Of a stretch of 64,000 nucleotides of DNA, positions 24,604 through 50,554 are shown piece by piece; position 1 is the first letter of the stretch, and every line of letters begins with the position of its first letter. Source of the DNA: a virus; IMG/VR virus record IMGVR_UViG_3300045988_159685; one strand, written 5' to 3'. The notes beneath the pieces are model-generated. The model saw nothing but the letters and a program-made list of their open reading frames with translations, was not told the DNA's origin and did no database searches. Position numbers and translations under genes: made by a program.

Positions 24604-24632
24604 TTGACATTTAGCCAAAAATGGTGTATAAT
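24604..24632 (+). promoter_or_regulatory. consensus sigma-A/sigma-70 promoter
   Basis: TTGACA-17 nt-TATAAT, ~50 nt upstream of the integrase ATG. Confidence 0.75.
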
Positions 24633-25473: not shown

Positions 25474-25834
25474 CTTCTCGCTACAGGTCTAAGACGTTTA
25501 TACGAAAGCCGACATAAGCCGGCATAAGCAACTTGACAAATCACAGTACGCTGTGCATAAAATGGGCACAAATCTCAAGCCTTGCCAAATCAAGGTTCAA
25601 TGCAGTTCTAGCCGACAGTAATTAAGCAAAGAAAATCCTGCCGCATTGAATTGGCAACAAACTTGAGTGCGTTTGTCCGAAGTGACAGGTCACTGGAGAT
25701 TAAACTCTGTCACTGGTCTTGTGAATGCAGGTACATCCATAGGTGAAAATTTGCAAGCCCCGATTTATTTGGCATAAGAAAAAAAGAAAAGAAAGAAGCA
25801 AAGAAAAGAAATAAAAGAATTATTATATATTATA

Positions 25835-25854
25835 ATATATATATATATATATAT
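25835..25854. repeat. (AT)10 microsatellite
   Basis: Read directly. Confidence 0.8.
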
Positions 25855-25857
25855 TAA

Positions 25858-25893
25858 TTCTTAAATCACTAGATTTATCTAGTGATTTAAGAA
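25858..25893. repeat. 36-bp perfect palindrome
   Basis: TTCTTAAATCACTAGAT-TT-ATCTAGTGATTTAAGAA. Confidence 0.85.
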
Positions 25894-25952
25894 GAGACAA
25901 TAATCTAGTATTATAACTATTCTTGAATAATAAATATAAGATTATTGTCTCT
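25893..25952. repeat. inverted repeat, 14-bp arms, 32-nt AT-rich loop
   Basis: AGAGACAATAATCT...AGATTATTGTCTCT. Flanked on both sides by A/G-only tracts (about 25787..25820 and 25953..25985). Confidence 0.8.
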
Positions 25953-26044: not shown

Positions 26045-28768
26045 ATGGCATTAAACAAATTATACTATGTGTACGGACTTGATACTGCGTGCCTTTATAC
26101 ACCAGAGGAAAGTGCTATTGAACAAAAAATTATCAAGGCACGTTGCCTTCGAGCTACGCTCAAAGACAGAATTGCCAAACAAAAGATAACCCCTTGTCTT
26201 TGTAAAGGTAAAAAAACTATAGCAAACAAAGACAACAAAGCCCCATACGTTGGAAAACATCAGAAGCGTCTGCGTTTTCTCAACGATTACATAGCCAGTC
26301 ATAAAGCATTACTTAAGCAGGAGCTTGCCAAAAATGTATCACTCACACGAACCGTGATACCTGACAAGCTCAATATACGTCGCCAGATTTCAATATTTGG
26401 CTCTTCCCTTACAAGATATTTCAACCTAAAGGAAAGAGAGCTTAATGAAGAAATCGTGATTGTAAAAGTTTACTTCTTCGATGTCGCCAAGAGCATTGTG
26501 AAGAACGGCTTTTACATGAATGGTCACAAATACGTTTTCTTCTCAAGTAGTGCGGGGCAAATCAGAACCAAAAAGCTCGTGGCCGTTCGTGAAGATTTAC
26601 TCAACAAGTATTGGAACGCATTGACGGCAGGCTTGACAATTGAAAAGATTAATGAGCAAGGCGGCATGAATGTAAATAAATTTCTTGCCTACCTTGCTCT
26701 TTGTAATTCAGCTACTGATTTATGGTGTGACTTCAACATTGACGAGTGTATTGTAGTTGACGACTTTGAAACGCTTGTGCATGGTACGGTTGACTTTATA
26801 GACGATAAGACCTATAGGATTGAAAGACAAGAAATGAATATACCGATCACGCACACCGATGGCTGTGGAATGATACTTCCAGAACTGAGTACAAAAAATT
26901 TCATGACAAGATTGCCATGGGTCAAAGGTCTGCTAGCAAGTTTTGACTTTGTGAAGTTTATCAAGGATAATAATTGCGACCCCGTGATTACTGACGTCTA
27001 CGGCGATAAGCATAATATCCTTGAGGAAAATATCAAAATCATATTTACCAAGAGTCAGTTCAAAATGTGGAAATATTATTCAAACTGGGGTGAATATAAA
27101 AACAACTTCAAGAAATATGGAAGCACCGCAGGCAAGTGTAACATAGAAGAAGGATATATCCCATATGCAACGATCAACTACCAAATGATACAGACACTAA
27201 TTGATACCACTGACAATGAGATAGCCGCACTTGCTCGTAAGAGCATGAACGATATTCGCAATCTCGCAACCGATAAAGCAACAATGCTCAAGGTTTTCGG
27301 AGCTACAAGCTACAACAAAAATATGAACGGCTTTCAAAAATGTCTTAAGTTATATCCCGAGCTTTTATCAGACCCATATTCTCGTGCCGCCCTTAAAGAC
27401 ATCAAACATAGCCTTGAGACAGATCAGTGGGCGGCCAAATTCAAAACAAGCGGTAAATACACGTTTGTTGTTCCAGACCTTTATGCGTTCTGTGAATATT
27501 TATTCTTACATATATCAAATCCTAAAGGACTTTTAAGCAACGGTGAAGTAAGTTGCAAACTGTTCAAAGATAATATTGAGCTTGATTGTTTACGTTCGCC
27601 GCACCTCTACATCGAACATGCCATAAGAACAAATCGTCATGTTGACAGTTGGTTTAATACAGATGCAATCTATACAAGTTGTGCCGACTGTATATCGAAA
27701 GTTTTGCAGTTCGACAACGACGGTGATAAACTATTGGTGATTCCAGATGAAACACTAATAAACCTTGCTAAACGAAACTTGCAAAAGTATGACATAGTAC
27801 CGCTCTTCTATAACATGGCTAAGGCGGGGGCAAAAGAACTTACTCCCGATAGCCTGTATGATGGATTAATATGTGCCTACACTGGTGGCAATATTGGCGA
27901 AATAAGCAACGCCATTACCAAGGTTTGGAATAGCGGAGTAATCGACCAAGAAAAAATCAATGTTGTTAAATGGCTTTGTATGGAAAATAACTTCGTCATA
28001 GACTACGCCAAGACCTTGTATAAACCCGTTCGTCCTGATTGGGTAAACGAAATTATTTCTAAGCACGTCAAGAGCAGAGTTCCACATTTCTTTCAATATG
28101 CTAAAGGCAAAGAAACCAATCAAGTAGAAGAAAGAGGTTTAAACACGGTTGACAGAATTAAGTCGTTGACCCCTATACAAAAGCTTAACTTTAATTTTAA
28201 GAACGACAATGTTGGAAAGTTTGATTATAGATTTCTGCTAAAAAACAAAGAAATTGAAGTCGATGAGAATGTGCTTCAACGCTTTAGGGATATATCAAGC
28301 AATCTAAGGTTTTGTGACTCAGATGGAACGGCACTTAACTACCAAGCCGTATACGATCAAGCGAAAGAAGAAATGCTTATGCTCGGTCATAACATTGACG
28401 ATGTTGTAGATATGCTTGTAGAGGATTTATTTCACAGTAGACGTGTTGAAAAGAAAAAAGCATTTTGGGAAATGTTTGGCGAAGTTGTGTACGAACATTT
28501 GTCGAACAATTTATCACAAAATTATATCCAGTGTGCTCACTGTCAGAAAAGATTTTATCGTGAAAACTCGAAACAAATTTACTGCAACAAATGTCAAAAC
28601 AAGAAGTCCATCAAAGCAAATACCAAGATTCTTCAATGTGCAGGTTGCGGCAAAACCATAACAGTAAGTACAAGATGTCATCGTGAAGCCTACTGCCCTG
28701 AGTGTAAAATTCATGCAAGAAATGCGGCAAGACTGAGGGCGTATTATAAAAATAAGCATCTTGTGTAG
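26045..28768 (+). CDS. candidate single-subunit two-barrel (YonO-like) RNA polymerase with C-terminal zinc ribbons
   Basis: LRSPHLYIEHA (R517), then QFDNDGDKLLV 40 aa later (nt 27713..27727). This mirrors beta-prime NRAPTLHRLGIQAF...NADFDGD. N-terminal FFSSSAGQIRTKK. C-terminal CAHCQK..CNKCQ and CAGCGK..CPECK. Confidence 0.6.
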   Translation: MALNKLYYVYGLDTACLYTPEESAIEQKIIKARCLRATLKDRIAKQKITPCLCKGKKTIANKDNKAPYVGKHQKRLRFLNDYIASHKALLKQELAKNVSLTRTVIPDKLNIRRQISIFGSSLTRYFNLKERELNEEIVIVKVYFFDVAKSIVKNGFYMNGHKYVFFSSSAGQIRTKKLVAVREDLLNKYWNALTAGLTIEKINEQGGMNVNKFLAYLALCNSATDLWCDFNIDECIVVDDFETLVHGTVDFIDDKTYRIERQEMNIPITHTDGCGMILPELSTKNFMTRLPWVKGLLASFDFVKFIKDNNCDPVITDVYGDKHNILEENIKIIFTKSQFKMWKYYSNWGEYKNNFKKYGSTAGKCNIEEGYIPYATINYQMIQTLIDTTDNEIAALARKSMNDIRNLATDKATMLKVFGATSYNKNMNGFQKCLKLYPELLSDPYSRAALKDIKHSLETDQWAAKFKTSGKYTFVVPDLYAFCEYLFLHISNPKGLLSNGEVSCKLFKDNIELDCLRSPHLYIEHAIRTNRHVDSWFNTDAIYTSCADCISKVLQFDNDGDKLLVIPDETLINLAKRNLQKYDIVPLFYNMAKAGAKELTPDSLYDGLICAYTGGNIGEISNAITKVWNSGVIDQEKINVVKWLCMENNFVIDYAKTLYKPVRPDWVNEIISKHVKSRVPHFFQYAKGKETNQVEERGLNTVDRIKSLTPIQKLNFNFKNDNVGKFDYRFLLKNKEIEVDENVLQRFRDISSNLRFCDSDGTALNYQAVYDQAKEEMLMLGHNIDDVVDMLVEDLFHSRRVEKKKAFWEMFGEVVYEHLSNNLSQNYIQCAHCQKRFYRENSKQIYCNKCQNKKSIKANTKILQCAGCGKTITVSTRCHREAYCPECKIHARNAARLRAYYKNKHLV

Positions 28769-28786: not shown

Positions 28787-28831
28787 AAATCCCCGTAAAC
28801 GACGTATCTACGTTGTTTGCGGGATTTTTTT
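28787..28831 (+). terminator. rho-independent terminator
   Basis: ~19-bp stem AAATCCCCGTAAACGACGTA / TACGTTGTTTGCGGGATTT followed by T-run. Confidence 0.8.
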
Positions 28832-28983
28832 GTATATAAATTTCAAAAAATTACACCCCTTATGGAGAGGAAAAGTCAATATACAAAGAACGGGCTGTCC
28901 TACGCTAGCGTTATAATCTTATCAAGTGCGCAGTTATAAGTTAGGATATATCTCCAAAAATATAGAACAAAAGGATTAGATAA

Positions 28984-29157
28984 ATGATTGAAATTAACAA
29001 GTGGGAAGAAAAACAATTAAGAAAGACCATACCGAACCTGTGCGTTGCAAGAACTGGTAAAAGTAAAAAAGCAAAGCGTGGTAAAATATATGCTGAGCCT
29101 ACACGCAAGGTGTTATCTACGCTAAAACGGATTCGTGAAGTTGACTACATCAACTAA
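28984..29157 (+). CDS. possible small basic protein (57 aa)
   Basis: MIEINKWEEKQLRKTIPNLCVARTGKSKKAKRGKIYAEPTRKVLSTLKRIREVDYIN; AAGGA upstream. Confidence 0.4.
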   Translation: MIEINKWEEKQLRKTIPNLCVARTGKSKKAKRGKIYAEPTRKVLSTLKRIREVDYIN

Positions 29158-29174
29158 GGGCAAATGGTGGATAT

Positions 29175-30362
29175 ATGAGTTATAAATATCAACGTTATGA
29201 AAATGAAAGCCCCGAAGAATTGATATTCAGGATCTGTAGTCACAAAAATGAAATTGGTACATGGAGCGACGTAGGTAGGGTGTTGAACGAATTACTTGGT
29301 GAAAACTATACCGAGTCTGCTTACCGCAAAAAATATCAGAGCTTTGAAAAAATGTTCTCAGGCAATCAGAAACTGTTTTCTGATAATGAAGAAGTCTTAT
29401 CGGAAATATCAGAGCAAAGACGTGAGCTTGAAAAAGAAAAGATTAAATTCCGTGATGAAAGAAACGCTTGGAACAAACAGAACCGCATTGCGGCAAGAAC
29501 TGAACAAAAATTAGATTATCTTGAAGAACAGCTTGTCTCCATGGGTAAAGTGAATTTTAGCAATCATACCACACCTGTAACAGTTAGAGGTAATTCAGAT
29601 TTGCTTATTACAATTAGTGATATTCACTATGGACTTAATTACAACAATTACTTTGGGACGTATAATTCTGACATATGCAAAAACTATCTTGCTAAATATC
29701 TCGAAAAGATTATAAGCATTGGATCACGTCATAAGGCAAGAAATATTCACGTCGTAATGTTAGGCGATATAATTTCTGGCTCAATACATAAGTCGATTCA
29801 AATTGCTAACCGCGAAAATGTCATAGAGCAGATTAAAGGCGTGTCTGAGTTATTGAGTTCATTCGTATATGAACTGTCGAATCATTTTGCAAAAGTCACA
29901 GTCACAAGCGTATCAGGAAATCATTCGCGTCTTGACAAAAAAGATGAAGCACTTCATGACGAAAGACTCGACGACATCGTTTCGTTCATAATGGAAAAGT
30001 CATTAAGCAATGTTGACAATATCAGTTTTCAAACTTACTACAATTTTGATACAAGCATAGCAAGTATTAAGATATGCGGCAAATTGTATTTCCTTGTACA
30101 CGGTGACTATGATACACCAAATGAGACAGGCGTAATGCGCCTATGTAGTATGGTTGGAAACATCCCGTATGCAATAATCATGGGTCATAGACATTCGGCG
30201 GCGTACAATGAAATCAACGGGATTGTTATTGTGCAAAGCGGTTGTTTGTGCGGAAGTGGCGATGACTATACGATACAAAAGCGTCTTAGTGGTTTGCCGA
30301 GTCAGACAATTTGTGTATGCTCCGAACATGGCATAGATTGTATGTACCCAGTGAAATTTTAG
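29175..30362 (+). CDS. calcineurin-like metallophosphoesterase with N-terminal coiled coil
   Basis: Ordered motifs ISDIHYG, VMLGDIISG, SGNHSR, LVHGDY, MGHRHS. Confidence 0.75.
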   Translation: MSYKYQRYENESPEELIFRICSHKNEIGTWSDVGRVLNELLGENYTESAYRKKYQSFEKMFSGNQKLFSDNEEVLSEISEQRRELEKEKIKFRDERNAWNKQNRIAARTEQKLDYLEEQLVSMGKVNFSNHTTPVTVRGNSDLLITISDIHYGLNYNNYFGTYNSDICKNYLAKYLEKIISIGSRHKARNIHVVMLGDIISGSIHKSIQIANRENVIEQIKGVSELLSSFVYELSNHFAKVTVTSVSGNHSRLDKKDEALHDERLDDIVSFIMEKSLSNVDNISFQTYYNFDTSIASIKICGKLYFLVHGDYDTPNETGVMRLCSMVGNIPYAIIMGHRHSAAYNEINGIVIVQSGCLCGSGDDYTIQKRLSGLPSQTICVCSEHGIDCMYPVKF

Positions 30363-30512
30363 CACACTCAATAATCTGTATGGGCAATCAAAAAAATAAA
30401 TATTCATTGAAGACTTATAATCTTCATGATTACACCAGGAACCCAACACGCCTCCTAGCAGTGCGTACCACGTTGGGTCTTTAAATTAATTTAGAATGTG
30501 AGGAAAAATAAA

Positions 30513-30791
30513 ATGGTAAAGAAAGATATTATAACAGCCGTATCAAAGAGAACTGGCTTTACAAGAGAAAATTCTGAGGCTGCTATTAATGCAGCAATTG
30601 CGGCAATCGTTGACGCTATCAAATCAAATGAGGAAGTAAGAATTATGGAGCTTGGAAAACTTGAGCCAGTTGTTAGAGCGGCACGCAATAGACATAATCC
30701 AAAGACTGGTGAGAAGATATTTGCTCCAGCCTACAAGAGTTACAGATTCAAGATGAATTCTGTGCTCAAGGATTTTGTCAGAAACAACTAA
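30513..30791 (+). CDS. HU/IHF-family DNA-binding protein
   Basis: MVKKDIITAVSKRTGFT...AARNRHNPKTGEKIFAPAYKSYRFKMNSVLKD; SD GAGGAAAA. Confidence 0.85.
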   Translation: MVKKDIITAVSKRTGFTRENSEAAINAAIAAIVDAIKSNEEVRIMELGKLEPVVRAARNRHNPKTGEKIFAPAYKSYRFKMNSVLKDFVRNN

Positions 30792-30866
30792 TTATAGCAT
30801 ATTCAAATCTCCTTTTCAGTGTCTTAATATTGACAGATAGAGGACGGCAATAGTCGTCCTTTACAT

Positions 30867-30942
30867 TGCGGAGTAGAGAAAAGGTATCTCGCTTGTTTCA
30901 TAGGCAAGAGATTATTGGTTCGAGTCCAATCTCACGCAACCA
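30867..30942 (+). tRNA. tRNA-Met(CAU)-like; acceptor stem has a bulged A (possible pseudogene or attP core)
   Basis: TGCGGAG-TA-GAGA-AAAGGTA-TCTC-G-CTTGT-TTCATAG-GCAAG-AGATT-ATTGG-TTCGAGT-CCAAT-CTC(A)CGCA-A-CCA. Confidence 0.5.
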
Positions 30943-31012
30943 ATTGGGGTACGGTTTATGAGGTTTTGTAGACCCATAAAAACAAAACCTAAAATGAAAG
31001 AAAGGAGACGCT

Positions 31013-32029
31013 ATGTCAAAGGTATCAAAACTTCCGCCTGTTACGCAGGAAGAGTGGAACAAAGTAAACGACTTTAACAAATTTATATTTGAAGATTTTA
31101 TAACGAACAGCACAGAGCTATCGCCTAAAACAAAAATTGCTTATGAGTCAAATTTAAAAATTTGGTTTATTTGGGTCAAAGATAATCTTAATAACAAATC
31201 TCAGATCGACATTAAACCTTTAGACTTTAAGCGTTTTCAAAACTGGATGGTCAACCGTGGTTGTTCAAGTGCAGATTGTGCAAACAAAAGAGCGGCAATT
31301 AGCTCGCTTAATAATTACATAGATGTTTACTATAGGGACGATTATCCACAATTTCGCAATTTTATTAATAAGAGTATAGCACGACCGCCAAAGGCTTTTG
31401 TAAATGAGAAGCAACCACTGACGAAAGAGGAATTTGCAAATCTTATTTCTGTTCTCGAAAAACGTGGTGATTGGCAAAAGGTTGCCTATCTTAAATTTAC
31501 ATTAGATACAGGATGTCGCCGTGCTGAGAGCATACAAGTGAAAAAGGATTTTGTAAACATCAAGCCGACCATAAAACACAAAACCCATATTGACGAAAAT
31601 GGTAACGAAGTAACAAAAGAGATTAAGTATTATGTTACCCCTACTATTCGTTGTAAAGGAAAGGGTACGGTTGGTAAAGAAAGAAAGTTTAAATTCTCAC
31701 AGGATACAATGGATGCATTTAAGAAGTGGATTGAAGTTAGAGGTGAAGACGATTGCCCAGACATGTTTATTTCTAAATATGCCGGAAAAGTAAAAGGCAT
31801 AGCAGAGAACACGTTAAACAATTGGGCTACTCATGTATTTACACCTATCGTCGGCAGACGCTTTCATCCGCATCTTCTAAGAGAGTCTAAGGCAACTCAG
31901 CTTGCAGTCGAAGAAGGAAAAGACATTTCTGTAATCCAAAGTCTATTAGGCCACGAGTCATCAGAAACTACACAAATTTATATAATCCGTGACGAAACCG
32001 ATGACCTCGACGAGTTGTTTGAAGAGTAG
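31013..32029 (+). CDS. tyrosine recombinase / integrase 2 (XerC/D-like, with N-terminal SAM-like domain)
   Basis: GCRRAES (Arg), HPHLLRESKAT (HxxR), LLGHESSETTQIY (His..Tyr); SD AGGAGA. Confidence 0.85.
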   Translation: MSKVSKLPPVTQEEWNKVNDFNKFIFEDFITNSTELSPKTKIAYESNLKIWFIWVKDNLNNKSQIDIKPLDFKRFQNWMVNRGCSSADCANKRAAISSLNNYIDVYYRDDYPQFRNFINKSIARPPKAFVNEKQPLTKEEFANLISVLEKRGDWQKVAYLKFTLDTGCRRAESIQVKKDFVNIKPTIKHKTHIDENGNEVTKEIKYYVTPTIRCKGKGTVGKERKFKFSQDTMDAFKKWIEVRGEDDCPDMFISKYAGKVKGIAENTLNNWATHVFTPIVGRRFHPHLLRESKATQLAVEEGKDISVIQSLLGHESSETTQIYIIRDETDDLDELFEE

Positions 32030-32037
32030 GTGACGGT

Positions 32038-33093
32038 ATGGGAAGACAAAAACAATCGTTATCTAAGAGACCGTCAGTTGCTACAAAAGAAAGCAAAAAA
32101 GAGCCTAAGACTAAAAGTATAGTCGAAGAACGTGAAAAAGTAATGACTCCTGAAAAGAAAGAGTACCGATATACATGTCTTTCTTGTCATTGCAGTGCAA
32201 ACAATCCTGTAAACTTTCCTATTTCATACAGTGTTATATATGCTGGCAACGATCACCGCCTGCCATATTGTCGTGATTGTTTAAACGCTATGTGGGCCAT
32301 TGTCGCAAAAGATTATTCAGATTATCAGGACATTTACCGCAGGATTTGTATGTACTTCGATATCTATTATAATGCAGAAGTAGCCGAGATAGCTTATAAA
32401 GAATCTGAGAGTGAAAAACGTGTTTCAAGATATATCACAAAAATAAATCGTTATCCATATAGCAACAAAACTTACCAAGATACAATTAAAGAAGATATGT
32501 CTAAAAGGCATACAGAAAATTTCGATGGATTGTATGAACCAATAGAGAAAACTGTTCCTCATGAAATCATTGACTTTTGGGGAGCTGGATTGGAAAGTGC
32601 TTCTGATTATCAAGAACTACAGGCTTCTTATGAAAAGTGGAATTCAGAGGTCGAGTGTTCAAAGCCTTCGCAAAGAATTTTAATTAAACGAATTTGTTTC
32701 AATGAGCTTAAAACTCATAAAGCAATGATTGCGGGAGACGACACTACTAAGCTTACCGACGAACTCAACAAATTACTTGATAGTGCAAAGCTACAGCCAA
32801 AACAGGTTAAAGATGTTTCAATAGCCGACGAGAATACATTTGGAACACTTATAAAGAAATGGGAAGATGAAGAACCAGTTCCAGAACCGCTCCCTGAGTT
32901 TAAGGATGTTGACGGTATTATAAAATATATTAGCGTTTGGTTCTACGGGCATCTTGCAAAAATGTTTGGCAAAAGAAACAAATGGGGAAAACTTTACAAC
33001 GACGAAGTTTCAAAATATACAGTTACTCCACCTGAGTATAATTCCGAAGATGATGACATAGACTTTGAGTCAATCTTTGGTGCAGATGAGTAG
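32038..33093 (+). CDS. putative terminase small subunit / DNA-packaging accessory protein
   Basis: Sits immediately upstream of terL. Basic N-terminus, Cys cluster CLSCHC...CRDC, acidic C-terminus. Confidence 0.4.
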   Translation: MGRQKQSLSKRPSVATKESKKEPKTKSIVEEREKVMTPEKKEYRYTCLSCHCSANNPVNFPISYSVIYAGNDHRLPYCRDCLNAMWAIVAKDYSDYQDIYRRICMYFDIYYNAEVAEIAYKESESEKRVSRYITKINRYPYSNKTYQDTIKEDMSKRHTENFDGLYEPIEKTVPHEIIDFWGAGLESASDYQELQASYEKWNSEVECSKPSQRILIKRICFNELKTHKAMIAGDDTTKLTDELNKLLDSAKLQPKQVKDVSIADENTFGTLIKKWEDEEPVPEPLPEFKDVDGIIKYISVWFYGHLAKMFGKRNKWGKLYNDEVSKYTVTPPEYNSEDDDIDFESIFGADE

Positions 33094-33103
33094 GTGATAC
33101 TTT

Positions 33104-34873
33104 ATGATGGTTGATAAAGTATACACTCAGGATAAAACTATGCAGACGGTAATTGAACGTGCCGCTTATTATAGGGCAAACCCACATAGGTTTGTCAAAG
33201 ATTATTTGGGCATTGATTTACGATTGTTCCAAATGATTTTAATAGTCATGATGAACTTTAATACAAATTTTATGTATCTTGCCAGTAGAGGTCAAGGCAA
33301 AACCTTTCTATGCGCTATATTTTGTTGCGTTAGATGTATCTTGTACCCTGGCACCAGAATTTGTATTGCTTCTTCTAAACGTGCACAAGCGTGTGAAGTA
33401 TTGGAAAAAATTATGACGATATTCTATCCTAATTCCGCTAATTTGCGAAACGAGATAGAAGTTTATAAAAATAACAACACTGAGAATTATATAAAATTCC
33501 ATAACACCTCAATGATAAAGGTTGTTACCGCAAGTGACAGTGCTCGTTCCAATCGAGCTAACATCCTTATAATTGACGAGTTTAGAATGGTAGACCAAAC
33601 TATCATTGCAACTGTACTGAAGAAATTCTTGACCGCTGAACGTGAGCCCGGATTTCTTAATAAGGATAAATATAAAAAGCTCAGAAGCACCGATATCGCT
33701 CAATATAATAAGTACAAAGAGCGTAATAAAGAAATGTATTTATCCTCGGCGTATTATAAAAAACATTGGTCATGGGAAAAGACTAAGACATATTGTGCGG
33801 CAATGTTGGACGATAAGCGCAGCTATTTCTTATGTGGACTCCCCTACCAACTATCAATTAAAGAGGGTATATTAAATGCGGAACAAGTAGCCGACGAAAT
33901 GTCTGAGGCAGATTTCTCACAGATAATTTGGGACATGGAAAGTGGATGTTTGTGGCATGGTGAAAGTGACGACGCATTATTTAGCTATTCAAGTTTGATA
34001 GATGCCAGGGCTATAAAGACTGCTTTTTATCCACATTCGGTAACAGACTATTACCCAGCTTTGAAGAACCCAACAAAGAAAAATGGTGAGATTAGAGTTC
34101 TTGCTGTGGACATCGCCGTTATGGCGTCGAAGAAAAATAAGAACGATGCAACAGCTATTCATATATTGCAATTACTTCCAACTAGCAATAGCCAGTATAT
34201 TAGAAATTTAGTATATTCCGAAAACTTTGAAGGCGGTCACTCTGAAACACAAGCAATTACAATAAGGCGCCTATTTGAAGATTTGGAATGTGACTACATT
34301 GTTATAGATACGAACGGCGTTGGTAATGGCGTATATGATGAGTTGGTCAAAGATTTGGTCGATCCTGTTACGGGTGAACTATATCCTGCCTTTACTTGTA
34401 TGAATGACGAAGCAATGGCGGAAAAATATAAGGGTTCTTCACGCAACCCAAGAAAAGTTATCTATAGTATTAAGGCAAGCGCAAAGTTCAACAGTGATTG
34501 TGCATACCTGCTTAAAGATAATTTAATGCGTGGAAAGACAAGACTGTTAATTAACGAAAAGGATGCCGACGATATTTTAAAGCAATCCAAAACATTTAGG
34601 GGTTTGGACGAAGAAATAAAAGCGAACATCCTTATGCCATATATACAAACTGCCCTGCTGGTTAATGAACTGGTCAATCTGAAATATGAAACAAACGGCA
34701 GTTTGATTAAGATTATGGAACGTGGAAACGAAAGAAAAGACCGATATTCTGCGCTAGCTTATGGTAATTATTTTGCCACCGAGTTAGAGAGGACTATCGT
34801 AAAACACAAAAAAGCAAAGCTAAACGACAATTTCATTTTTGAATTTAGAGCGCCGTCTTTGCGTACAAGTTAG
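33104..34873 (+). CDS. terL: terminase large subunit
   Basis: Walker A ASRGQGKTF, Walker B NILIIDEF, nuclease-half VLAVDIAV; 589 aa. Confidence 0.85.
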   Translation: MMVDKVYTQDKTMQTVIERAAYYRANPHRFVKDYLGIDLRLFQMILIVMMNFNTNFMYLASRGQGKTFLCAIFCCVRCILYPGTRICIASSKRAQACEVLEKIMTIFYPNSANLRNEIEVYKNNNTENYIKFHNTSMIKVVTASDSARSNRANILIIDEFRMVDQTIIATVLKKFLTAEREPGFLNKDKYKKLRSTDIAQYNKYKERNKEMYLSSAYYKKHWSWEKTKTYCAAMLDDKRSYFLCGLPYQLSIKEGILNAEQVADEMSEADFSQIIWDMESGCLWHGESDDALFSYSSLIDARAIKTAFYPHSVTDYYPALKNPTKKNGEIRVLAVDIAVMASKKNKNDATAIHILQLLPTSNSQYIRNLVYSENFEGGHSETQAITIRRLFEDLECDYIVIDTNGVGNGVYDELVKDLVDPVTGELYPAFTCMNDEAMAEKYKGSSRNPRKVIYSIKASAKFNSDCAYLLKDNLMRGKTRLLINEKDADDILKQSKTFRGLDEEIKANILMPYIQTALLVNELVNLKYETNGSLIKIMERGNERKDRYSALAYGNYFATELERTIVKHKKAKLNDNFIFEFRAPSLRTS

Positions 34874-34883
34874 GGGTGAATAA

Positions 34884-36359
34884 ATGTCAAATACAGAAAA
34901 GAAAGAAATTATGGTCTGGGATAAAAGTATGGGTAACTTTGCACGTCTTGGTGAAGTACCAATTAGAAACTTGAATCAAGATTACTATATTAATCGATCT
35001 TCTATTCATTATACCAAATACAAAAAAGAAGATGTGGTCAAATGGTTTACCGATCCTGAAGCAAACGAAAAGAATTTGAGAAATGCTTCTATCTACCTTT
35101 ACGAAGTAAGCCCACATTATCGGAGACTAATTAACTATTTTGCCAAGCTTCATACAATGGCATATATTATTGAACCTTATAAACTTGACCAAAGTAAAAA
35201 AATAGATACGGCTAAATTAAAAGAAACATATATAAAGATTTGCAACTACATTGATAAAATGAATTTAAAACACGAGGCCGTTAAAATATTAACAACGTGT
35301 TTTAGAGAAGACGTATTCTATGGCTATGTTTACGAAACGACCGACTCATACTATATAAGAAAAATGCCGCCTGACTATTGTAAAATTAATCGAATAGAGG
35401 ACGGATGTTTTTTATATCAATTTGACTTCTCTTATTTTACAAGTCATAAAGAGGACTTGGAATCGTTTGGCGAAGAGTTTATTGAAAAGTACGAGCTGTA
35501 TAAAACACATCGCTCAATGCGTTGGCAAAGTTTGAGTAGCAAACGCACTTTTTGTTTAAAGGTGAATGAGGATATTAATTTCCCAATGCCACCTTTTATT
35601 GGTGTATTTGCGGGTATATTTGATATTGATGATTATAAAGGATTGCAAAAGGCTAGAACTGAAATAGGAAACTACAAAATCTTATCATTAAAAATTCCAA
35701 TGGAAGACGGCGATTATAAGATGGAGCAGGAAGACGCCCTTATGTACTATAACAATTTGTTAAAGGTATTACCTGAAAACATCGGCGCATTTCTAACCCC
35801 TATGGACGTTGAAGACCATGACTTTCAGAAATCAGGCAATGTTGATATAGACAATGTTGGCGACGCAACTAAAACCTTTTGGAATGATGCTGGCGTATGT
35901 TCATTGATTTTCGGTGGTGACAAACAAACCTCCGCAACACTTTCGGTTTCTATTAAGTCAGACGAACAAATGGTTTTTGCTCTAATGAACCAGTTTGGAC
36001 GTAATATAAATCGACTACTTAAACAGATAGACGGCAGATACAAATTTAAGATTCAATTTCTGGATGTAACTTATTATAATCAGCAGGAAACATATAAGTC
36101 ATATCTCAATGCCGCCCAAGCAAGTTTACCAACAACAACTATGGCGTGTGCGGCGTTAGGAGTTGCGCCAATTGATATGATGAATATGAATTTTCTTGAG
36201 GATGATATACTACATATCAAGGAAAAATTTGAACCTCTTAAAACTTCATATACACAATCTAGTGGAGAGGCTGGTGCGCCAACTCAGGAAGAAAAAGGCG
36301 AGCAGTTATCTGACGCTGGTGAAAATACGCGAGACCATAATTCCAATCAAGAATACTAG
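34884..36359 (+). CDS. portal protein
   Basis: 491 aa directly after terL, with an acidic C-terminus; assigned from position and size. Confidence 0.7.
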   Translation: MSNTEKKEIMVWDKSMGNFARLGEVPIRNLNQDYYINRSSIHYTKYKKEDVVKWFTDPEANEKNLRNASIYLYEVSPHYRRLINYFAKLHTMAYIIEPYKLDQSKKIDTAKLKETYIKICNYIDKMNLKHEAVKILTTCFREDVFYGYVYETTDSYYIRKMPPDYCKINRIEDGCFLYQFDFSYFTSHKEDLESFGEEFIEKYELYKTHRSMRWQSLSSKRTFCLKVNEDINFPMPPFIGVFAGIFDIDDYKGLQKARTEIGNYKILSLKIPMEDGDYKMEQEDALMYYNNLLKVLPENIGAFLTPMDVEDHDFQKSGNVDIDNVGDATKTFWNDAGVCSLIFGGDKQTSATLSVSIKSDEQMVFALMNQFGRNINRLLKQIDGRYKFKIQFLDVTYYNQQETYKSYLNAAQASLPTTTMACAALGVAPIDMMNMNFLEDDILHIKEKFEPLKTSYTQSSGEAGAPTQEEKGEQLSDAGENTRDHNSNQEY

Positions 36360-36548
36360 GTGAAGCTTATGAAGTTTATATATACAAAAGATATTGATAT
36401 AAAAAACAAACTTGTTGCTAAAGGTTTTAGGCTATTGCAGACCTTTGACAACAAGATTTTTGTTTTTGAAAACAATTGTAGTTCTACCTTTACAAAAGAC
36501 GAGCTTACAAAGATTGTTTATAGTAACACTTTTTGTATGAGGGGGTGA
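36360..36548 (+). CDS. small hypothetical protein
   Basis: ORF track only. Confidence 0.35.
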   Translation: MKLMKFIYTKDIDIKNKLVAKGFRLLQTFDNKIFVFENNCSSTFTKDELTKIVYSNTFCMRG

Positions 36549-36553
36549 ACAAA

Positions 36554-38074
36554 ATGAAGAAACAAAATTTGCCTATAAATTACTCCATAGATAAGGATTT
36601 TAAATCGGACAAGTTTATCAAACTGCGTATGCGGATTTGTCACGATGGAATAAATTATAACAATTCTAAATTTACCATTGAAAATCTTGAGGAGAAAAAA
36701 GATAGTTTAGCTAATTCACCAATACTTGCGTATATGTACTTTGATGAAAATGGTGATCCGCAATTTGGAGAACACAATTTTGAAATTGAAAAAGACAAAG
36801 TACACGACGGTGAAGCTAAAATTATATATACCGAAACGCCAGTTGGTGTTATTCCAGAGACAAATAATTTTGAAGTTGTCAATGAGGATGGCATCAACTA
36901 TATTTATGCTGACGGATATATATGGAAGAAATATTCCAATTATTGCGAAGATATTCTCAATCGTTATGATGAAATAAGAATCTCGATGGAAGTGAATATT
37001 TTAGCTTATTCCTATAACACCACAGATAATGTATACGATATTACAGATTTCAACTATGCGGCAGTAACGCTGTTGAATGAAGGTATTGATACAGGTATGA
37101 AAAATGCGAGAGCGACAATTGAAACTTTCTCACAATCTGTGGAATCCGAAAAAGATTTGTCCTTTATGATGCAAGAATTAAATAAAGACCTTGCGGATAA
37201 TAAAGAAGATTTTACGAAAGGAGATGTGAAACAGATGGATAAGGAACTTATAGAAAACATTCTCAAAGAATATAAAATGAAAATCGACGATATTTCTTTT
37301 GACATCACAGATGACATGACTGAGGAAACATTTAGATCTCAGCTTGAAACAATGCAGGCTAATTCTAAAGGAGCCGAAGACGAGGCTAAGCCTGATGATG
37401 AGTTTAAGGCTTCTAAAATCGAAGCTCCCGTTACAATGTTTGCAACCGTAAATCAGAAGCGAGAGATGATAAAAAATGCAATTCCAAAAGACAGCAGTGA
37501 ATATGACGAAGATAAAAATCTCGTTAAGTCGGTAGATTATTGGCTTGAAGACTTTGATGACAATTATGTTTATATTTCAATTTATTCATATGAACGCGGT
37601 AATGGCTCTTCTTCAAAGATGGGACGCTTTGCGTATTCCATTGACGAGACTGGGGTTGTAACAATTGACAGTAATTATGTAGAGGTGTTCAGAAGTTGGG
37701 TCACAGCAGAAGAAATGGCTGCGCTTGACGCACTTAAAGAAGAAAATAGTAAGCTCAAGTCAGAGGTAGACGAGCTGAATGAATACAAAGAAACTGTCGA
37801 AAAAGAAAAGGTTGAAACAGCGGCTTCAGAAATATTTAATGATTTTGAGAATGAGTTATCTGGCGTTGACGAGTTTTCTCTTCTTAAATCCGAGCATGAC
37901 GGCATGACTGCTGAGCAAATATCTGCACAGTGTTACATGCTTCTGGGCAAGAAAAACAAGAAGTCAACCAAAGCAACTAAGGAAAGCAAGACTGTTACAT
38001 TTAGTTTAAATGGTAAAACAGAGTCTGTGGACGAGCCTTGGTACAAAGAATTATACGATAAGTATGGAAAATAA
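36554..38074 (+). CDS. putative prohead protease and/or scaffolding protein
   Basis: Lies between portal and capsid genes. Coiled-coil C-half (EEMAALDALKEENSKLKSEVDELNEYKETVEKEK). Start after GAGGGGG. Confidence 0.4.
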   Translation: MKKQNLPINYSIDKDFKSDKFIKLRMRICHDGINYNNSKFTIENLEEKKDSLANSPILAYMYFDENGDPQFGEHNFEIEKDKVHDGEAKIIYTETPVGVIPETNNFEVVNEDGINYIYADGYIWKKYSNYCEDILNRYDEIRISMEVNILAYSYNTTDNVYDITDFNYAAVTLLNEGIDTGMKNARATIETFSQSVESEKDLSFMMQELNKDLADNKEDFTKGDVKQMDKELIENILKEYKMKIDDISFDITDDMTEETFRSQLETMQANSKGAEDEAKPDDEFKASKIEAPVTMFATVNQKREMIKNAIPKDSSEYDEDKNLVKSVDYWLEDFDDNYVYISIYSYERGNGSSSKMGRFAYSIDETGVVTIDSNYVEVFRSWVTAEEMAALDALKEENSKLKSEVDELNEYKETVEKEKVETAASEIFNDFENELSGVDEFSLLKSEHDGMTAEQISAQCYMLLGKKNKKSTKATKESKTVTFSLNGKTESVDEPWYKELYDKYGK

Positions 38075-38096
38075 TTAAGGAAAGAGGTAATAAAAC

Positions 38097-38591
38097 ATGG
38101 CAACAAGACATGCTATTGTTAGAACTGATAATCTGTCAGGCACTACAGATGGTTCTAAGCTGATTTCAGCTAAGTTTTACAGCGGCTCCGATCCGGCTGC
38201 TATTGACAACGGAAATGTTGTATCTATTTCAGACGAGCTTATAAACAGAGAAACATATAAGGTAACTGCACCTACAGCGGCAGACACAAGAGCAACAATT
38301 GGTCTGGTGGCTTCTGTAGAGATTATGTATGACGAGCAGAGATATCACAACCTTGAGGATTTTACAAATGAGGCCGACTCACTGATTAGAGTGTATGCTC
38401 TTGAAACAGGAGACGAGTTCTCTGTAACTAAGGAGGCACTTGACGGCACAGTTGCTAAAGATAAGTACGTCAAGCTGACAGCGGACTCAACAAAGCTTAC
38501 TGCAACTGACACTGCTACAGGCGCCATTGGTAAGATAGTTGCCGTCGAGATTGTAAACCCTGATACATACTACGTTATCAAGGTTAAGTAA
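38097..38591 (+). CDS. capsid-associated protein (decoration or scaffold candidate)
   Basis: Position only; strong SD. Confidence 0.35.
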   Translation: MATRHAIVRTDNLSGTTDGSKLISAKFYSGSDPAAIDNGNVVSISDELINRETYKVTAPTAADTRATIGLVASVEIMYDEQRYHNLEDFTNEADSLIRVYALETGDEFSVTKEALDGTVAKDKYVKLTADSTKLTATDTATGAIGKIVAVEIVNPDTYYVIKVK

Positions 38592-38614
38592 TTATAGGGA
38601 AAGGAGATACTATA

Positions 38615-39610
38615 ATGGATACAAATGAGAAAATTGTTTCCCTTGCTGTAAATCTGTACAAGGGTAATCCTGTTGGCGAGTTTTCACAGAGCGATTCAAT
38701 GGAGACACTGAGAAAAGCACTGGTTGCCGCTAACAATGGTTCTACAAAGATTTCATATAAAGATATAAGAGATGGCAAATGCAACGGTGTATTCGCTATT
38801 GTTGAGGAGGTTATTCAGAGAACCGTAGTTGACGGTATTCAGGGTGACGAATTCTTCATGAATATGGTTGACTATAGAAACGTAAAGCTCGGTGACGAGA
38901 ATGACTTCTACGTTCCATCAAAGGCGCTCTTTGTTGTTTCTGAAGTTGCAAACGGTGTTCAGTCACTCAGACGTCAGAGACTTAATGGTGGTGAACATGT
39001 AACAGTTAAGACTTCTCTTAAAGCTGTTAAGATTTATGAGGAGCTCAATAGAGTTCTTCCAGGTCGTGTAGACTTTAATACTTTTATCGACAGAGTGAGC
39101 GAATCTTACAAACAGCAGATGAGAGCCGATATCTATAATGCTTGGTGTACATATGTTGGCAATGGTTCAACCTATTTCCCTGTAGCTGGCACATATAGCG
39201 AAGATGGTCTGCTTGAGATGGTAAACCATGTAGAGGCGGCAACTGGCAAGTCTGCAACAATCATTGGTACAAAGGCAGCACTCAGAAAGATAAAGATAGA
39301 CACAGTATCTGACGAGGCTAAGTCTGATATGTACAACATTGGTTACTACGGTAAGTTTAATGGTACAAACTGCGTTAAGGTAAATCAGATACATAAGCCA
39401 GGTACAACTGATTTCCTGCTTGACGATAAGAAGCTTTATGTTATTGCAACAGATGACAAGCCTATTAAGGTCGTTACTGAGGGCGAGCCAACAATTATTC
39501 TTGGCAATCCTGCCGATAATGCCGATCTTACACAGGAGTTCTTCTATGGCGAGAGCTACGGCGTTGGTATTGTAATGGCGGATCAGTTCGGCGTTTACTC
39601 AATGTCATAA
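38615..39610 (+). CDS. major capsid protein
   Basis: 331 aa; strong SD AAAGGAGA; followed by the strongest terminator of the module; position. Confidence 0.7.
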   Translation: MDTNEKIVSLAVNLYKGNPVGEFSQSDSMETLRKALVAANNGSTKISYKDIRDGKCNGVFAIVEEVIQRTVVDGIQGDEFFMNMVDYRNVKLGDENDFYVPSKALFVVSEVANGVQSLRRQRLNGGEHVTVKTSLKAVKIYEELNRVLPGRVDFNTFIDRVSESYKQQMRADIYNAWCTYVGNGSTYFPVAGTYSEDGLLEMVNHVEAATGKSATIIGTKAALRKIKIDTVSDEAKSDMYNIGYYGKFNGTNCVKVNQIHKPGTTDFLLDDKKLYVIATDDKPIKVVTEGEPTIILGNPADNADLTQEFFYGESYGVGIVMADQFGVYSMS

Positions 39611-39623
39611 TAAAAATATTAAT

Positions 39624-39656
39624 ATGCAGAGAGTTCAATGCTCTCTGCATTTTTTT
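39624..39656 (+). terminator. rho-independent terminator
   Basis: ATGCAGAGAG-7 nt-CTCTCTGCAT followed by T7. Confidence 0.85.
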
Positions 39657-39673
39657 GAATGAAAGGAATAAAT

Positions 39674-40225
39674 ATGAGTACAACAAAAAGCACAATATCT
39701 AAAGGGGTAGCCACATCAAATACAACCAAGGGTGCAACCACTAAAAAAGCTTCTACTTCTGAAAATAAGAAGATAGAGCACAAGCAATTACCGCTTGATA
39801 CAATGGTAGCATGCACAAATATGACCAGTGGCAAGCTAATTTATATAAGCTCAAGACAAATGGGTTTCACTATTGAGTGGGAGCATGAAGGAGATGTGGA
39901 ATACATTGAACTTGGTGAACTTGTAACTATGCGCAATTCTCAGCGAGCATTTTTTGAAAAGAATTGGATTGCAATTGAAGACCCTGAAGTTAAAAAGTTC
40001 TTACGAGTAAATGCCTACTATGATGGTATTCCGTCAATGGACGATTATGAAGACCTATTCAATAAGCCCGATTCTGAGATATTGAAAATCTTAAAAGGTG
40101 TTCCAGATGGATTTAAAGAAATCTTAGCAAATAAGGCTAGCAAAATGATAAGTGATGGCACAATAGATTCTCGTAAAACAATTGCATTACTAAAAAGCGA
40201 ACTTAACTTGGATATTGAAGAGTAA
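39674..40225 (+). CDS. hypothetical structural-module protein
   Basis: ORF track; start at the ATG after AAAGGA. Confidence 0.5.
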   Translation: MSTTKSTISKGVATSNTTKGATTKKASTSENKKIEHKQLPLDTMVACTNMTSGKLIYISSRQMGFTIEWEHEGDVEYIELGELVTMRNSQRAFFEKNWIAIEDPEVKKFLRVNAYYDGIPSMDDYEDLFNKPDSEILKILKGVPDGFKEILANKASKMISDGTIDSRKTIALLKSELNLDIEE

Positions 40226-40234
40226 TGGAGGTGT

Positions 40235-40681
40235 ATGATATTGGCTACACCTTATAGTGAAATAACCGACAGCTTTGTTGGTATTGTAACAGAGTACAAG
40301 TTTTTTAATATCTTAAAGGAAGACCGTGACGAATGGCTTACTGATATAATGGATAGAGCTTGTGCAAGATTTAGAAAATCATGTCGCAAAAATCTTGACG
40401 ACCGAAACGAAGAATTGCGTCAATTTAATGCCACGCTTGATGCAGATGAGATTGACATTATTCATCAGTTAATGATTGCCGAATGGTTAAGACCTCAATT
40501 ATTCTCCTGCGAAAATCTCGAGAACAAATTGAACACTAAAGATTACTCGGAGTATTCACCAGCAAATTTGTTAAAAGAAATTCGTTCTACCCATGAGTAT
40601 GCGGTTGATGAAGCAAAAAACATGATAAAAAATTATACTTTTTCATTCCGTGATTTGGGGGATAAAATAGATGGCAAATAA
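40235..40681 (+). CDS. head-tail joining module protein (unassigned)
   Basis: ORF track; SD GGAGGTG; position. Confidence 0.5.
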   Translation: MILATPYSEITDSFVGIVTEYKFFNILKEDRDEWLTDIMDRACARFRKSCRKNLDDRNEELRQFNATLDADEIDIIHQLMIAEWLRPQLFSCENLENKLNTKDYSEYSPANLLKEIRSTHEYAVDEAKNMIKNYTFSFRDLGDKIDGK

Positions 40682-40961
40682 TAATTTATATATTAACTAT
40701 TTGAATTCTTTAATCTCCAAGGTATATAAAATTCTTCCGATGAAAGAAGAACAAAATACTACAACGGAAGTGTACATATCAAGTTTGATTTTCGAGCTAC
40801 ATGGCTTTGAAAATTTACTGAACGAATACCACAACGATGCGAGAATACTTACAATTATATGTGTACTTGAGTCTCTTAAAGAACCTAACATTTCGCATGA
40901 GGTTTACAAAAGTGAAGTCTTTAAATGTATTAGCCTGATTGAACAAATTCTACGGGGGTGA
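40671..40961 (+). CDS. head-tail joining module protein (unassigned)
   Basis: ORF track; overlapping starts and stops. Confidence 0.45.
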   Translation: MANNNLYINYLNSLISKVYKILPMKEEQNTTTEVYISSLIFELHGFENLLNEYHNDARILTIICVLESLKEPNISHEVYKSEVFKCISLIEQILRG

Positions 40962-41962
40962 GAGCAATCAATAAATTTGACTTGTATAACAGGGTAACTT
41001 TATCTGATGGTGCAACCCCAAAAGAGAGAATGATTAATCATTGCAAAAATAATATCATTTATAAATCACGGCGTAGTCCTTCACGCAAAAGTGTTCTTAT
41101 TGACAGTGAGCAAAAAGATGTTGTAATAGTATCAGGAAGCAATAACCATGTAAAAACGATTTGTGCTTTGCCAAACGACATTATCTATGATGGGCAAATT
41201 GTTGAATGGGAAAAATCACATTGGTTAATCTCCAATGTTGATATTGAATCTTCGGTTTATTATAAAGGAGTCATACACCAATGCAATATTAATTTACGTT
41301 GGCAAAACAAGGATGGCGAAATTATAAGTCGATGGTGCTATGCTGAAACGAATACCGCAGACGGTATCAAAGAGGGTAATACGTTAAATTTAACCGACGG
41401 CAATTTAACCTTGCATTTACCCCTAGACAATGAAACACGTCAACTTCGTTTAGATAGGCGCTTTTTATTAGATATAGAAAAAGACAATCCGACGGCATAC
41501 AAACTTATTAATCGTAATGTTGTAAGCGGAATATATGATGAAAATCATGAACATGGTGTGTATATCATAACACTACAAAAGTCCGAACGATCGCACGATC
41601 GTGATAACTACGAATTGATGATTGCGGATTACTTTAAGCCTACCAAAGATAAGTCGGTTGGAATAAACTGCGCAATTAAATTTGATGGCTCCCCTACCAT
41701 TAAGGCAGGCGGGTACTATAAAAGTTTTAATGCTGTATTCTATGATAAGGATGGTTCTGAAATATCGCAAGAAGCGATATGGAATGTAGCCGTTATTGAC
41801 GAACATAAGAAATATTTTTCTATCGTTAATGAGGGTTCTACAATAAAAATCAAAGCCGACAACAATGAGGGTATCATTGGCTCAAAGATTAAAATTGAAC
41901 TATGTAACTCGGCTCAAAATTGTTCTGCCGAACTTTATGTAAAGGTGGTGGCAATTTTATGA
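40958..41962 (+). CDS. structural-module protein (unassigned)
   Basis: ORF track; GTGA overlap. Confidence 0.5.
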   Translation: MRAINKFDLYNRVTLSDGATPKERMINHCKNNIIYKSRRSPSRKSVLIDSEQKDVVIVSGSNNHVKTICALPNDIIYDGQIVEWEKSHWLISNVDIESSVYYKGVIHQCNINLRWQNKDGEIISRWCYAETNTADGIKEGNTLNLTDGNLTLHLPLDNETRQLRLDRRFLLDIEKDNPTAYKLINRNVVSGIYDENHEHGVYIITLQKSERSHDRDNYELMIADYFKPTKDKSVGINCAIKFDGSPTIKAGGYYKSFNAVFYDKDGSEISQEAIWNVAVIDEHKKYFSIVNEGSTIKIKADNNEGIIGSKIKIELCNSAQNCSAELYVKVVAIL

Positions 41963-42432
41963 CACCGTCTGGACAAATAAAAAAATACAAACAGCAATTA
42001 ATATCATTGTTTGTGAATAATGAAAAAATCGTAAAGCTTATCAATGAAAAAGATATATCTAATCCTGAAGATTTGATATACCACAATTTCTTTAATTTTA
42101 TCCGAGTGCCAGAAACTATTGATGAGGAACGTAATTATATTTGCGTTAAAATAGATGTGCCCGAAGTCTATACTTCAAGTCTGTTTTTTAAGCAAATCAT
42201 AATAACAATCTATGTTGTTTCACATCAAAAGCAAATGGTTACGGAATTTGGTGGGGCACGTCCTGACTTAATTGCGGAACAAATTGAAGAAATTCTAATT
42301 GATTATAAGGGTATCGGCAAGAAGAAGCTTGTAGAAATTTCAAATGTAGAAAAAGATTTGGGCGATAGACACAGATGTCGTATCTTAAAATTCAAAGCCG
42401 AAGATATGTCAAAAAGTAGGTGTGCTATGTAA
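41959..42432 (+). CDS. structural-module protein (unassigned)
   Basis: ATGA overlap with the previous gene; SD GGTGGTGG. Confidence 0.5.
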   Translation: MTPSGQIKKYKQQLISLFVNNEKIVKLINEKDISNPEDLIYHNFFNFIRVPETIDEERNYICVKIDVPEVYTSSLFFKQIIITIYVVSHQKQMVTEFGGARPDLIAEQIEEILIDYKGIGKKKLVEISNVEKDLGDRHRCRILKFKAEDMSKSRCAM

Positions 42433-43232: not shown

Positions 43233-43266
43233 GCTCAACCGCAAGGTTTGAGTCTTTTTTATTTTT
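43232..43266 (+). terminator. rho-independent terminator
   Basis: GGCTCAA-9 nt-TTGAGTC followed by T-run. Confidence 0.65.
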
Positions 43267-43280
43267 AAGGAGGAAAAACT

Positions 43281-44093: not shown

Positions 44094-44110
44094 GGTAAGG
44101 TGTAGAGCAA

Positions 44111-44437: not shown

Positions 44438-44443
44438 CGTATC

Positions 44444-44475
44444 GGGCTTGTAACAAGCAAGCCCTTTACTTTATT
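44444..44475 (+). terminator. terminator-like hairpin
   Basis: GGGCTTG-7 nt-CAAGCCC followed by TTTACTTTATT. Confidence 0.55.
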
Positions 44476-44487
44476 GAGGATAAAAGG

Positions 44488-44862: not shown

Positions 44863-44884
44863 AAAATAGCCTACCTATTTTTTT
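44851..44884 (+). terminator. rho-independent terminator
   Basis: GGTAGG-13 nt-CCTACC followed by TATTTTTTT. Confidence 0.65.
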
Positions 44885-44929
44885 CAATACGAAATTATAT
44901 TTTCTATGTTTGTAATGTGAGGTGAAATT

Positions 44930-45565: not shown

Positions 45566-45581
45566 GGACGGTGAATGAATA

Positions 45582-49647: not shown

Positions 49648-49677
49648 GGAATAAAAATATTATAGGAGTTGTTAATT

Positions 49678-50553: not shown

Positions 50554-50554
50554 G

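Follow-up and report, generated by a model that had tools for sequence, protein, structure and literature searches.

The question raised by this locus is what kind of enzyme is encoded by a 907-amino-acid (aa) open reading frame (ORF) on a 64,000-nucleotide (nt) viral DNA (IMG/VR record IMGVR_UViG_3300045988_159685; the whole stretch is called the window below), and which genes that enzyme transcribes. The ORF starts with ATG and lies on the plus strand (mechanical ORF list). The original prediction, made from the letters of the window, was a single-subunit RNA polymerase of the two-barrel type represented by YonO of SPβ rather than a T7-like enzyme. Among the known relatives of the cellular multisubunit RNA polymerases, YonO-type enzymes are the simplest, and they have been discussed as ancestral single-chain models. 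Based on the analysis described here, the protein is very probably a YonO-type DNA-dependent two-barrel polymerase that serves a rightward late operon. The gene is carried by an SPβ-like element, a temperate phage or prophage, whose host is a low-GC member of the Bacillota, and the exact 907-aa protein was found on contigs of 0.2-1 Mb, which implies a prophage.

Comparison of the protein with SPβ YonO by BLASTP gave 378/858 identities (44%, E=0), collinear over residues 2-850. In the Pfam search, PF05183 ('RdRP') was the sole significant family (aa 133-282, 49.9 bits against a curated gathering cutoff of 23.8 bits, E=2.7e-13) and no T7-type or Rpb1/Rpb2-domain match was obtained, and the unnamed family PHROG 8308 was matched over its full length (aa 3-857, E=1e-236). 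By tblastn against 50,697 phage records, a yonO homologue was found in every SPβ-like Bacillus phage, including SPBc2 itself, together with homologues in Clostridium phage D-1873 and Psychrobacillus phage Perkons (~44% identity, ~94% query coverage) and distant copies (~25% identity) in Enterocloster, Thomasclavelia and Clostridium c-st phages. In the protein database, homologues at E<=1e-5 numbered more than 3,700, with PF05183 precomputed for most of them. Homologues in reference genomes (33-48% identity) belonged to Paenibacillus, Bacillus, Oscillospiraceae, Lachnospiraceae and others, and the closest one was only ~48% identical. These comparisons strongly support the assignment of the ORF as a YonO orthologue, which adds a new member to this known family. 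The identification is routine, and it corrects labels of the 'hypothetical protein' or 'RdRP' style.

The motifs from which the original prediction had been drawn were all placed correctly, as checked arithmetically against the ORF coordinates: the first nucleotide of the R517 codon is nt 27593, and D557-D561 are encoded by nt 27713-27727. Across 63 aligned close homologues (46-59% identity), D557, D559, G560, D561, R517, S518, P519 and L521 were invariant, as were S169, G171, Q172, I173, R174, K176 and K177 of the SSAGQIR block (FFSSSAGQIRTKK), and the motifs are therefore not due to chance. After extension of this alignment by YonO itself plus four remote phage homologues (20-23% identity), 22 invariant positions were left, including D272, G273, R289, K294, G295, R517, P519, D557 and D559. 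D561 was missing solely in the c-st copy, the gene of which is interrupted there. The predicted beta-prime-like barrel pattern, R517 followed by the D557/D559/D561 triad, was thus conserved in the close and the distant homologues, with this one loss.

According to Ruprich-Robert and Thuriaux (PMC2919709), eight residues are common to all two-barrel polymerases, namely D709, R738 and K743 in one barrel and R962, P964, D1007, D1009 and D1011 in the other barrel of QDE-1. All eight were present in the window protein as D272, R289, K294, R517, P519, D557, D559 and D561, respectively, when mapped by motif and spacing and not by structural superposition; the mapping rests on motifs and spacing because sequence searches of the PDB with the single protein and with a 63-sequence profile returned only non-significant zinc-ribbon matches (e.g. 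RpoP/Rpb12, E6) and hence no residue-level alignment with QDE-1 or RDR2. The R-(5)-K spacing is the same as that of R738/K743 in QDE-1, the R-x-P spacing is likewise the same, and the distance from P to D is similar (38 vs 43); on the same basis, D272 is the counterpart of QDE-1 D709 and Rpb2 D837 (PMC2919709). The equivalent Asp triad of YonO is essential for catalysis, as determined with a 3D>3N mutant (PMC5467207).

The SSAGQIR block had been proposed as the second, beta-like barrel, and this part was not upheld. At 20-23% identity the block degenerates, as in the PMBT24, TR-TP1 and c-st homologues (GTTGGLKNE, RSGSMSRTG and GTNGGVKND are the stretches aligned with it in distant homologues), and it lies outside the eight universal residues. 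Since D272-G273, R289 and K294-G295 stay invariant while the block degenerates, the beta-like barrel signature, as judged from the alignments, is HTDGCG...RLPWVKG (aa 270-295), and SSAGQIR is by the same judgement a hallmark of YonO proper.

The structure was predicted by AlphaFold2 with the 63-sequence alignment, with a mean predicted local distance difference test (pLDDT) of 89.2 and a predicted template modelling score of 0.81; pLDDT was below 50 only at aa 1-3, 48-64 and 757-764. When the model was searched against the PDB by Foldseek, the RDR2 proteins of maize and Arabidopsis were the only significant matches (E 1e-18 to 3e-11), with a template modelling (TM) score of ~0.5 over 825-920 columns at 12-14% identity; they were followed by non-significant matches (E above 0.01) to the phiKZ/AR9 non-virion polymerases and to beta-prime/Rpb1. 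The best matches in BFVD were phage proteins annotated as RdRP (YonO-like), at E 7e-33 with a TM score of 0.64 and at E 1e-28, with weak matches to LEF-9 and the RPB1 homologue of African swine fever virus lower in the list. No primase, helicase or structural protein was among the Foldseek matches in the PDB or BFVD. Two double-psi beta-barrels in one polypeptide are supported by this predicted model, the fold being called from whole-chain matches to RDR2 and phage YonO-like models and not from strand-by-strand barrel topology. A two-barrel, non-T7-like polymerase, as originally proposed, is thus borne out by YonO homology, PF05183, the predicted fold and the invariant catalytic residues. No YonO structure seems to have been deposited, because no significant PDB match of higher identity was returned.

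An enzyme amplifying or copying an RNA, i.e. an RNA-dependent RNA polymerase, would agree with the 'RdRP' name of the top Pfam family, with the plant RDR2 proteins as the best solved-structure matches and with the annotation of the Perkons, PMBT24 and TR-TP1 homologues as 'RNA-dependent RNA polymerase', but it is hardly probable here. The annotations stem from the family name and not from experiments, and YonO, which is orthologous over its full length (44% identity) and has the same gene neighbourhood, acts in vitro as a processive DNA-dependent RNA polymerase, with an essential Asp triad, and makes late-gene mRNA in vivo (Forrest et al. 2017, PMC5467207; PMC8270828 is cited alongside it for the activity and the late-operon dependence of YonO). 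By analogy with YonO, a DNA-dependent activity would be expected for the window protein, and functional membership in the RNA-silencing RdRP family is unlikely. The protein has the two-barrel core, the fold and the D...R-x4-K and R-x-P...DxDGD signatures in common with QDE-1/RDR2 (PF05183), and it differs from them in sequence (12-14% identity), in having no detected RNA recognition motif or head domains, in the DNA template expected by analogy and in its phage late-operon context.

The Mg loop (RxP...DxDGD) and the second barrel's basic pair are also found in the multisubunit beta/beta-prime core, the phiKZ/AR9 non-virion RNA polymerases and LEF-9, whereas the structural matches to these enzymes are marginal (E above 0.01), both barrels stand in one chain in the window protein and no Pfam Rpb1/Rpb2-type domain is present; for YonO, no trigger-loop homology was detectable according to Forrest et al. 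(PMC5467207). T7-type polymerases resemble the window protein as phage-encoded single chains and, by analogy with YonO, probably in late-gene transcription, but their fold is unrelated, and no T7-family match was obtained in Pfam, the PDB sequence search, Foldseek against the PDB or BFVD.

SPβ YonO is alike in full-length homology, the eight catalytic residues, the single ~100-kDa chain and the first CxxC...CxxC ribbon. Two CxxC...CxxC pairs are present near the C-terminus of the window protein (C830/C833...C847/C850 and C865/C868...C884/C887), so that, unlike SPβ YonO, it ends in a second zinc ribbon followed by a helix (aa 865-907); it also has a ~24-aa N-terminal insertion (aa ~41-64) predicted to be disordered (pLDDT below 50). 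The second ribbon was missing from most of the 63 reference-genome homologues, and at least four CxxC motifs, enough for more than one ribbon, were found only in L028, L033, L053 and L070. Only the double zinc ribbon and a conserved element after the terminator, described below, go beyond routine annotation; what the comparison adds is a residue map of both barrels, a double-zinc-ribbon subclade and a conserved non-coding element at the place expected for a late promoter.

The window copy of the polymerase gene is uninterrupted. Many yonO homologues are split by inserted ORFs (GIY-YIG or other homing-endonuclease-like), as seen in c-st (L003), SPβ-like phages, L050, L053, L055 and L060, and the c-st homologue is broken just past the second catalytic Asp (the equivalent of D559).

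As to the genes transcribed, deletion of yonO silences 37 late (structural and lysis) genes in SPβ, and the YonO-dependent late genes form one operon with a start site downstream of yonO and upstream of yonK (PMC5467207). The primer-extension primers of Forrest et al. were placed in SPβ at L001:11285 (forward) and ~L001:11503-11529 (reverse), and the start site is thus ~260-480 nt past yonN, before a ~1.2-kb leader. In the window, the polymerase gene stands at the head of an SPβ-type late module on the same strand, the gene order of which parallels yonO-yonN-yonK-yonJ...yonG-yonF-yonE of SPβ. The terminator directly after the gene and the same-strand homologues of YonJ, HU/YonN, YonG, terminase, portal, YonD and YonB are features in common with SPβ. 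The same late-gene order was found in eight relatives (50-60% identity), and the polymerase-HU-terminase order was kept even at 20-25% identity. Differences from SPβ are the order small ORF-YonJ-HU instead of YonN-leader-YonK-YonJ, a short tyrosine-recombinase gene upstream in place of yonP, and the probable host, a gut or anaerobic Bacillota rather than Bacillus.

It had been proposed instead that the polymerase may read the 23-kb leftward arm, which seemed to lack sigma-A promoters; in this reading, the rightward arm would be served by the host polymerase. The minus strand of the left arm is indeed without a strong sigma-A-like promoter, its best sites being 10/12 matches inside genes. However, sigma-70-like sites occurred at chance frequency on both arms (left, 71 observed vs 72.1+-9.3 expected; right, 65 vs 66.9+-7.1), and missing sigma-A promoters therefore do not single out the left arm. 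The proposal also conflicts with the experimentally determined YonO regulon, a late operon that follows the yonO gene (PMC5467207), with the rightward late module in the window and with the polymerase-HU-terminase order on one strand in distant relatives; the leftward arm carries accessory genes, seven tRNA genes and ParB-like and anti-repressor-like genes, not virion genes. The leftward arm is accordingly a very unlikely template. By analogy with SPβ, the rightward late module is most likely transcribed by the enzyme, being much the more probable template of the two.

The strong terminator that had been predicted after the gene was found as a hairpin beginning 24 nt past the stop codon. A stem-loop is annotated at the same place after yonO of SPβ, and a hairpin with a T-run likewise follows the polymerase gene in relatives. 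The stretch after the stop codon was aligned between the window and four relatives, and a weight matrix was built from a block that they share and that sits after each terminator. This element (ATTTCAAAAAATTACACCCCTTATGGAGAGGAA in the window, ~33 nt) has a consensus of about AAAATGGCAAAAATTTA-n3-CC-n-TTATGGAAAG. The matrix gave a single strong match in the window (32.2 bits; next best, 16.1 bits). In leave-one-out tests, the held-out site ranked 1 of 25,000-128,000 positions in four of the five loci and 8 in the fifth. Four further relatives, excluded from matrix building, were used as an out-of-sample test: in two of them, the top match of the whole locus lay at +54 and +70 relative to the stop codon, in a third the match at +40 ranked 3, and the fourth retained only a second block (GCTAATTTACAAATCTAAAGGG).

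No sigma-A geometry was seen in the element when the hexamer spacing was inspected, and RNAalifold found no consensus pairs that would make it a structured RNA. As a family-wide motif it failed: of 63 distant loci, one had its top match 3' of the gene (chance expectation, 1.4), and the element is therefore clade-specific only. A likeness by eye to the P_YonO region of SPβ (L001:11254-11285) gave only background scores in the weight-matrix scan, and a de novo search for 8-mers enriched 3' of the gene in 70 loci was uninformative, being swamped by ribosome-binding sites and HU gene starts.

Since the element heads the late module and is insulated from upstream transcription by the terminator, it is a reasonable candidate for the late promoter of the clade. 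That it would be read directly by the polymerase without a sigma factor, with recognition via the second zinc ribbon and/or the HU-like protein, is a tentative and rather doubtful suggestion. No promoter sequence defined for any YonO-type enzyme was found in the literature searched, and Forrest et al. 2017 (PMC5467207) left open which sequence is recognised by YonO-type polymerases and whether a cofactor is needed. The element makes this question testable and, if the suggestion is true, would provide a comparative model of promoters used by single-chain two-barrel RNA polymerases, the first of its kind.

In the mechanism that may be proposed from SPβ, the polymerase gene would be expressed early by the host sigma-A polymerase, the transcription of which would be halted by the terminator. 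The new enzyme, a ~100-kDa single polypeptide, would be supplied with D272, R289 and K294 of the active site by the beta-like barrel and with R517, P519 and the Mg-binding D557/D559/D561 by the beta-prime-like barrel. It would then start downstream of the terminator, and the rightward virion module (~28.9 kb to beyond 64 kb) would be read processively as a late operon. Both the late-gene specificity and the initiation site are transferred here from YonO by analogy.

Several points weigh against this reading. The P_YonO of SPβ lies after yonN and before the ~1.2-kb leader, and the window is without such an arrangement; nor was the element detectable in SPβ by the weight-matrix scan. With 44% identity to YonO, the protein could differ from it in template and promoter specificity. 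Within the right arm, terminator-like hairpins occur at 39624-39650, 44444-44464 and 44850-44876, and the late module is interrupted by two minus-strand ORFs at 50555-51750; because of these hairpins and minus-strand genes, one continuous transcript of 35 kb can only be assumed.

Upstream of the polymerase gene, the consensus host promoter and the integrase of the original prediction were found as a perfect 12/12 sigma-A-type site, which is a possible entry of the host polymerase for early rightward transcription, and a 262-aa tyrosine-recombinase-family ORF at 24685-25473 (PHROG 216, Pfam Phage_integrase). The 'ori-like' palindrome cluster was confirmed in part. The palindromes are real (25858-25893, 17-nt arms, 100% complementary; 25893-25952, 20-nt arms, 90%), adjoin a (TA)n run and purine-rich repeats and overlap a weak sigma-A-like site (25887-25914), but their partnership with the gene was not conserved. 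A mainly replicative enzyme, e.g. a primase-like one acting at this cluster as an origin, might be suggested by the palindromes and AT-rich sequence 90-220 nt upstream of the gene; it is extremely unlikely, given that the cluster is absent beside the gene in 7 relatives, that no similarity to primases, helicases or DNA polymerases was found in Pfam, PHROGs, the PDB or BFVD, and that the equivalent place in SPβ, the divergent yonR-yonP junction, has been proposed to hold the pac site and is not tied to an origin (PMC8270828). The coordinates of the polymerase gene, its signatures and the surrounding features are listed in Table 1.

Table 1. Positions of the polymerase gene, its conserved segments and the neighbouring features in the window
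Feature	Coordinates	Strand	Basis or remark
Consensus sigma-A-type promoter, TTGACA-17-TATAAT	24604..24632	+	12/12; upstream of short tyrosine-recombinase ORF
Palindrome/(TA)n cluster	25825..25952	.	Inverted repeats I1, I2; readings: operator, pac or ori
YonO-family single-chain two-barrel RNA polymerase gene, 907 aa	26045..28768	+	ORF, YonO BLASTP, PF05183, PHROG 8308, AlphaFold2/Foldseek
FFSSSAGQIRTKK block, aa 165-177	26537..26575	+	Conserved in YonO proper, not universal; inside Pfam RdRP match (aa 133-282)
Putative beta-like barrel catalytic segment, aa 270-295: HTDGCG (D272, G273)...RLPWVKG (R289, K294, G295)	26852..26929	+	Invariant even at 20-23% identity
Beta-prime-like barrel catalytic segment, aa 517-561: RSPHL (R517, P519)...DNDGD (D557/D559/D561, Mg-binding triad)	27593..27727	+	Invariant in 63 close homologues and distant ones
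Two C-terminal zinc ribbons	28532..28705	+	Each Cys in at least 61 of 63 clade members; second missing from SPβ YonO
Intrinsic terminator closing polymerase gene	28792..28823	+	14-bp stem, 7 GC pairs, T-tract
Clade-conserved ~33-nt element ATTTCAAAAAATTACACCCCTTATGGAGAGGAA, candidate late promoter or regulatory site	28840..28872	+	Weight matrix, alignment
Co-directional SPβ-type late/virion module, probable template	28984..64000	+	PHROG, Pfam, gene order
Small 57-aa ORF	28984-29157	+	First ORF of late module
YonJ-like exonuclease (YonJ_N)	29175-30362	+	Pfam/PHROG
HU/YonN-like gene (Bac_DNA_binding)	30498-30791	+	Pfam/PHROG
Tyrosine recombinase	31013-32029	+	Pfam/PHROG
YonG-like gene (YonG_N/C)	32038-33093	+	Pfam/PHROG
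Terminase (Terminase_6N)	33104-34873	+	Pfam/PHROG
Portal	34884-36359	+	Pfam/PHROG
YonD-like (YonD_N), then YonB-like (YonB)	Right arm, after portal	+	Pfam/PHROG
Tape measure, then tail proteins	45582-49322 (tape measure)	+	Pfam/PHROG

Within the late module, a homology of the 57-aa ORF to YonK was considered and rejected, as no BLASTP alignment was obtained. An HU/histone-like gene lies within a few kb 3' of the polymerase gene in 10 of 12 relatives (L001, L002, L004, L005, L079, L080 and L083-L086) and in the window, even at 20-25% polymerase identity; this neighbourhood suggests a functional link, either in packaging or as an architectural cofactor for late transcription. The second tyrosine recombinase stands between the HU-like and YonG-like genes, a position conserved in L079, L080, L082 and L085; in SPβ itself, the recombinase is of the serine type and maps elsewhere. 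Between the HU-like gene and the second tyrosine recombinase, a plus-strand tRNA at 30868-30938 was detected by Rfam (48.8 bits vs a cutoff of 29) and was not called by ARAGORN.

At the divergence point of the two arms, which is also where the GC skew changes over, an ORF-poor stretch of ~1.2 kb (23451-24684) ends at the perfect sigma-A promoter; for known non-coding RNAs in the ORF-poor stretches at 23.4-26.1 kb, Rfam gave nothing meaningful. In one relative, an IS605 OrfB/TnpB-type gene with a Cas12f-like TNB domain (L083, 782-1900) is located ~3 kb upstream of the polymerase gene.

In the leftward arm, the seven tRNA genes are scattered over 16086-21160 on the minus strand (three Glu-CTC, two Lys-TTT, one Gln-TTG and one Leu-TAA), and the three Glu-CTC copies have flanking repeats in common. 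A 25-nt palindrome, TTAACGGAACAAGTTGTTCCTTTAA, occurs four times at 19387-19867, overlapping and extending upstream of the 5' end of the anti-repressor-like gene (18729-19673, minus strand), and looks like the operator array of a lysis-lysogeny switch. A repeat of ~45 nt, present six times on the minus strand at 7007-15408 and with longer versions of 90-140 nt, marks a family of small paralogous minus-strand genes.

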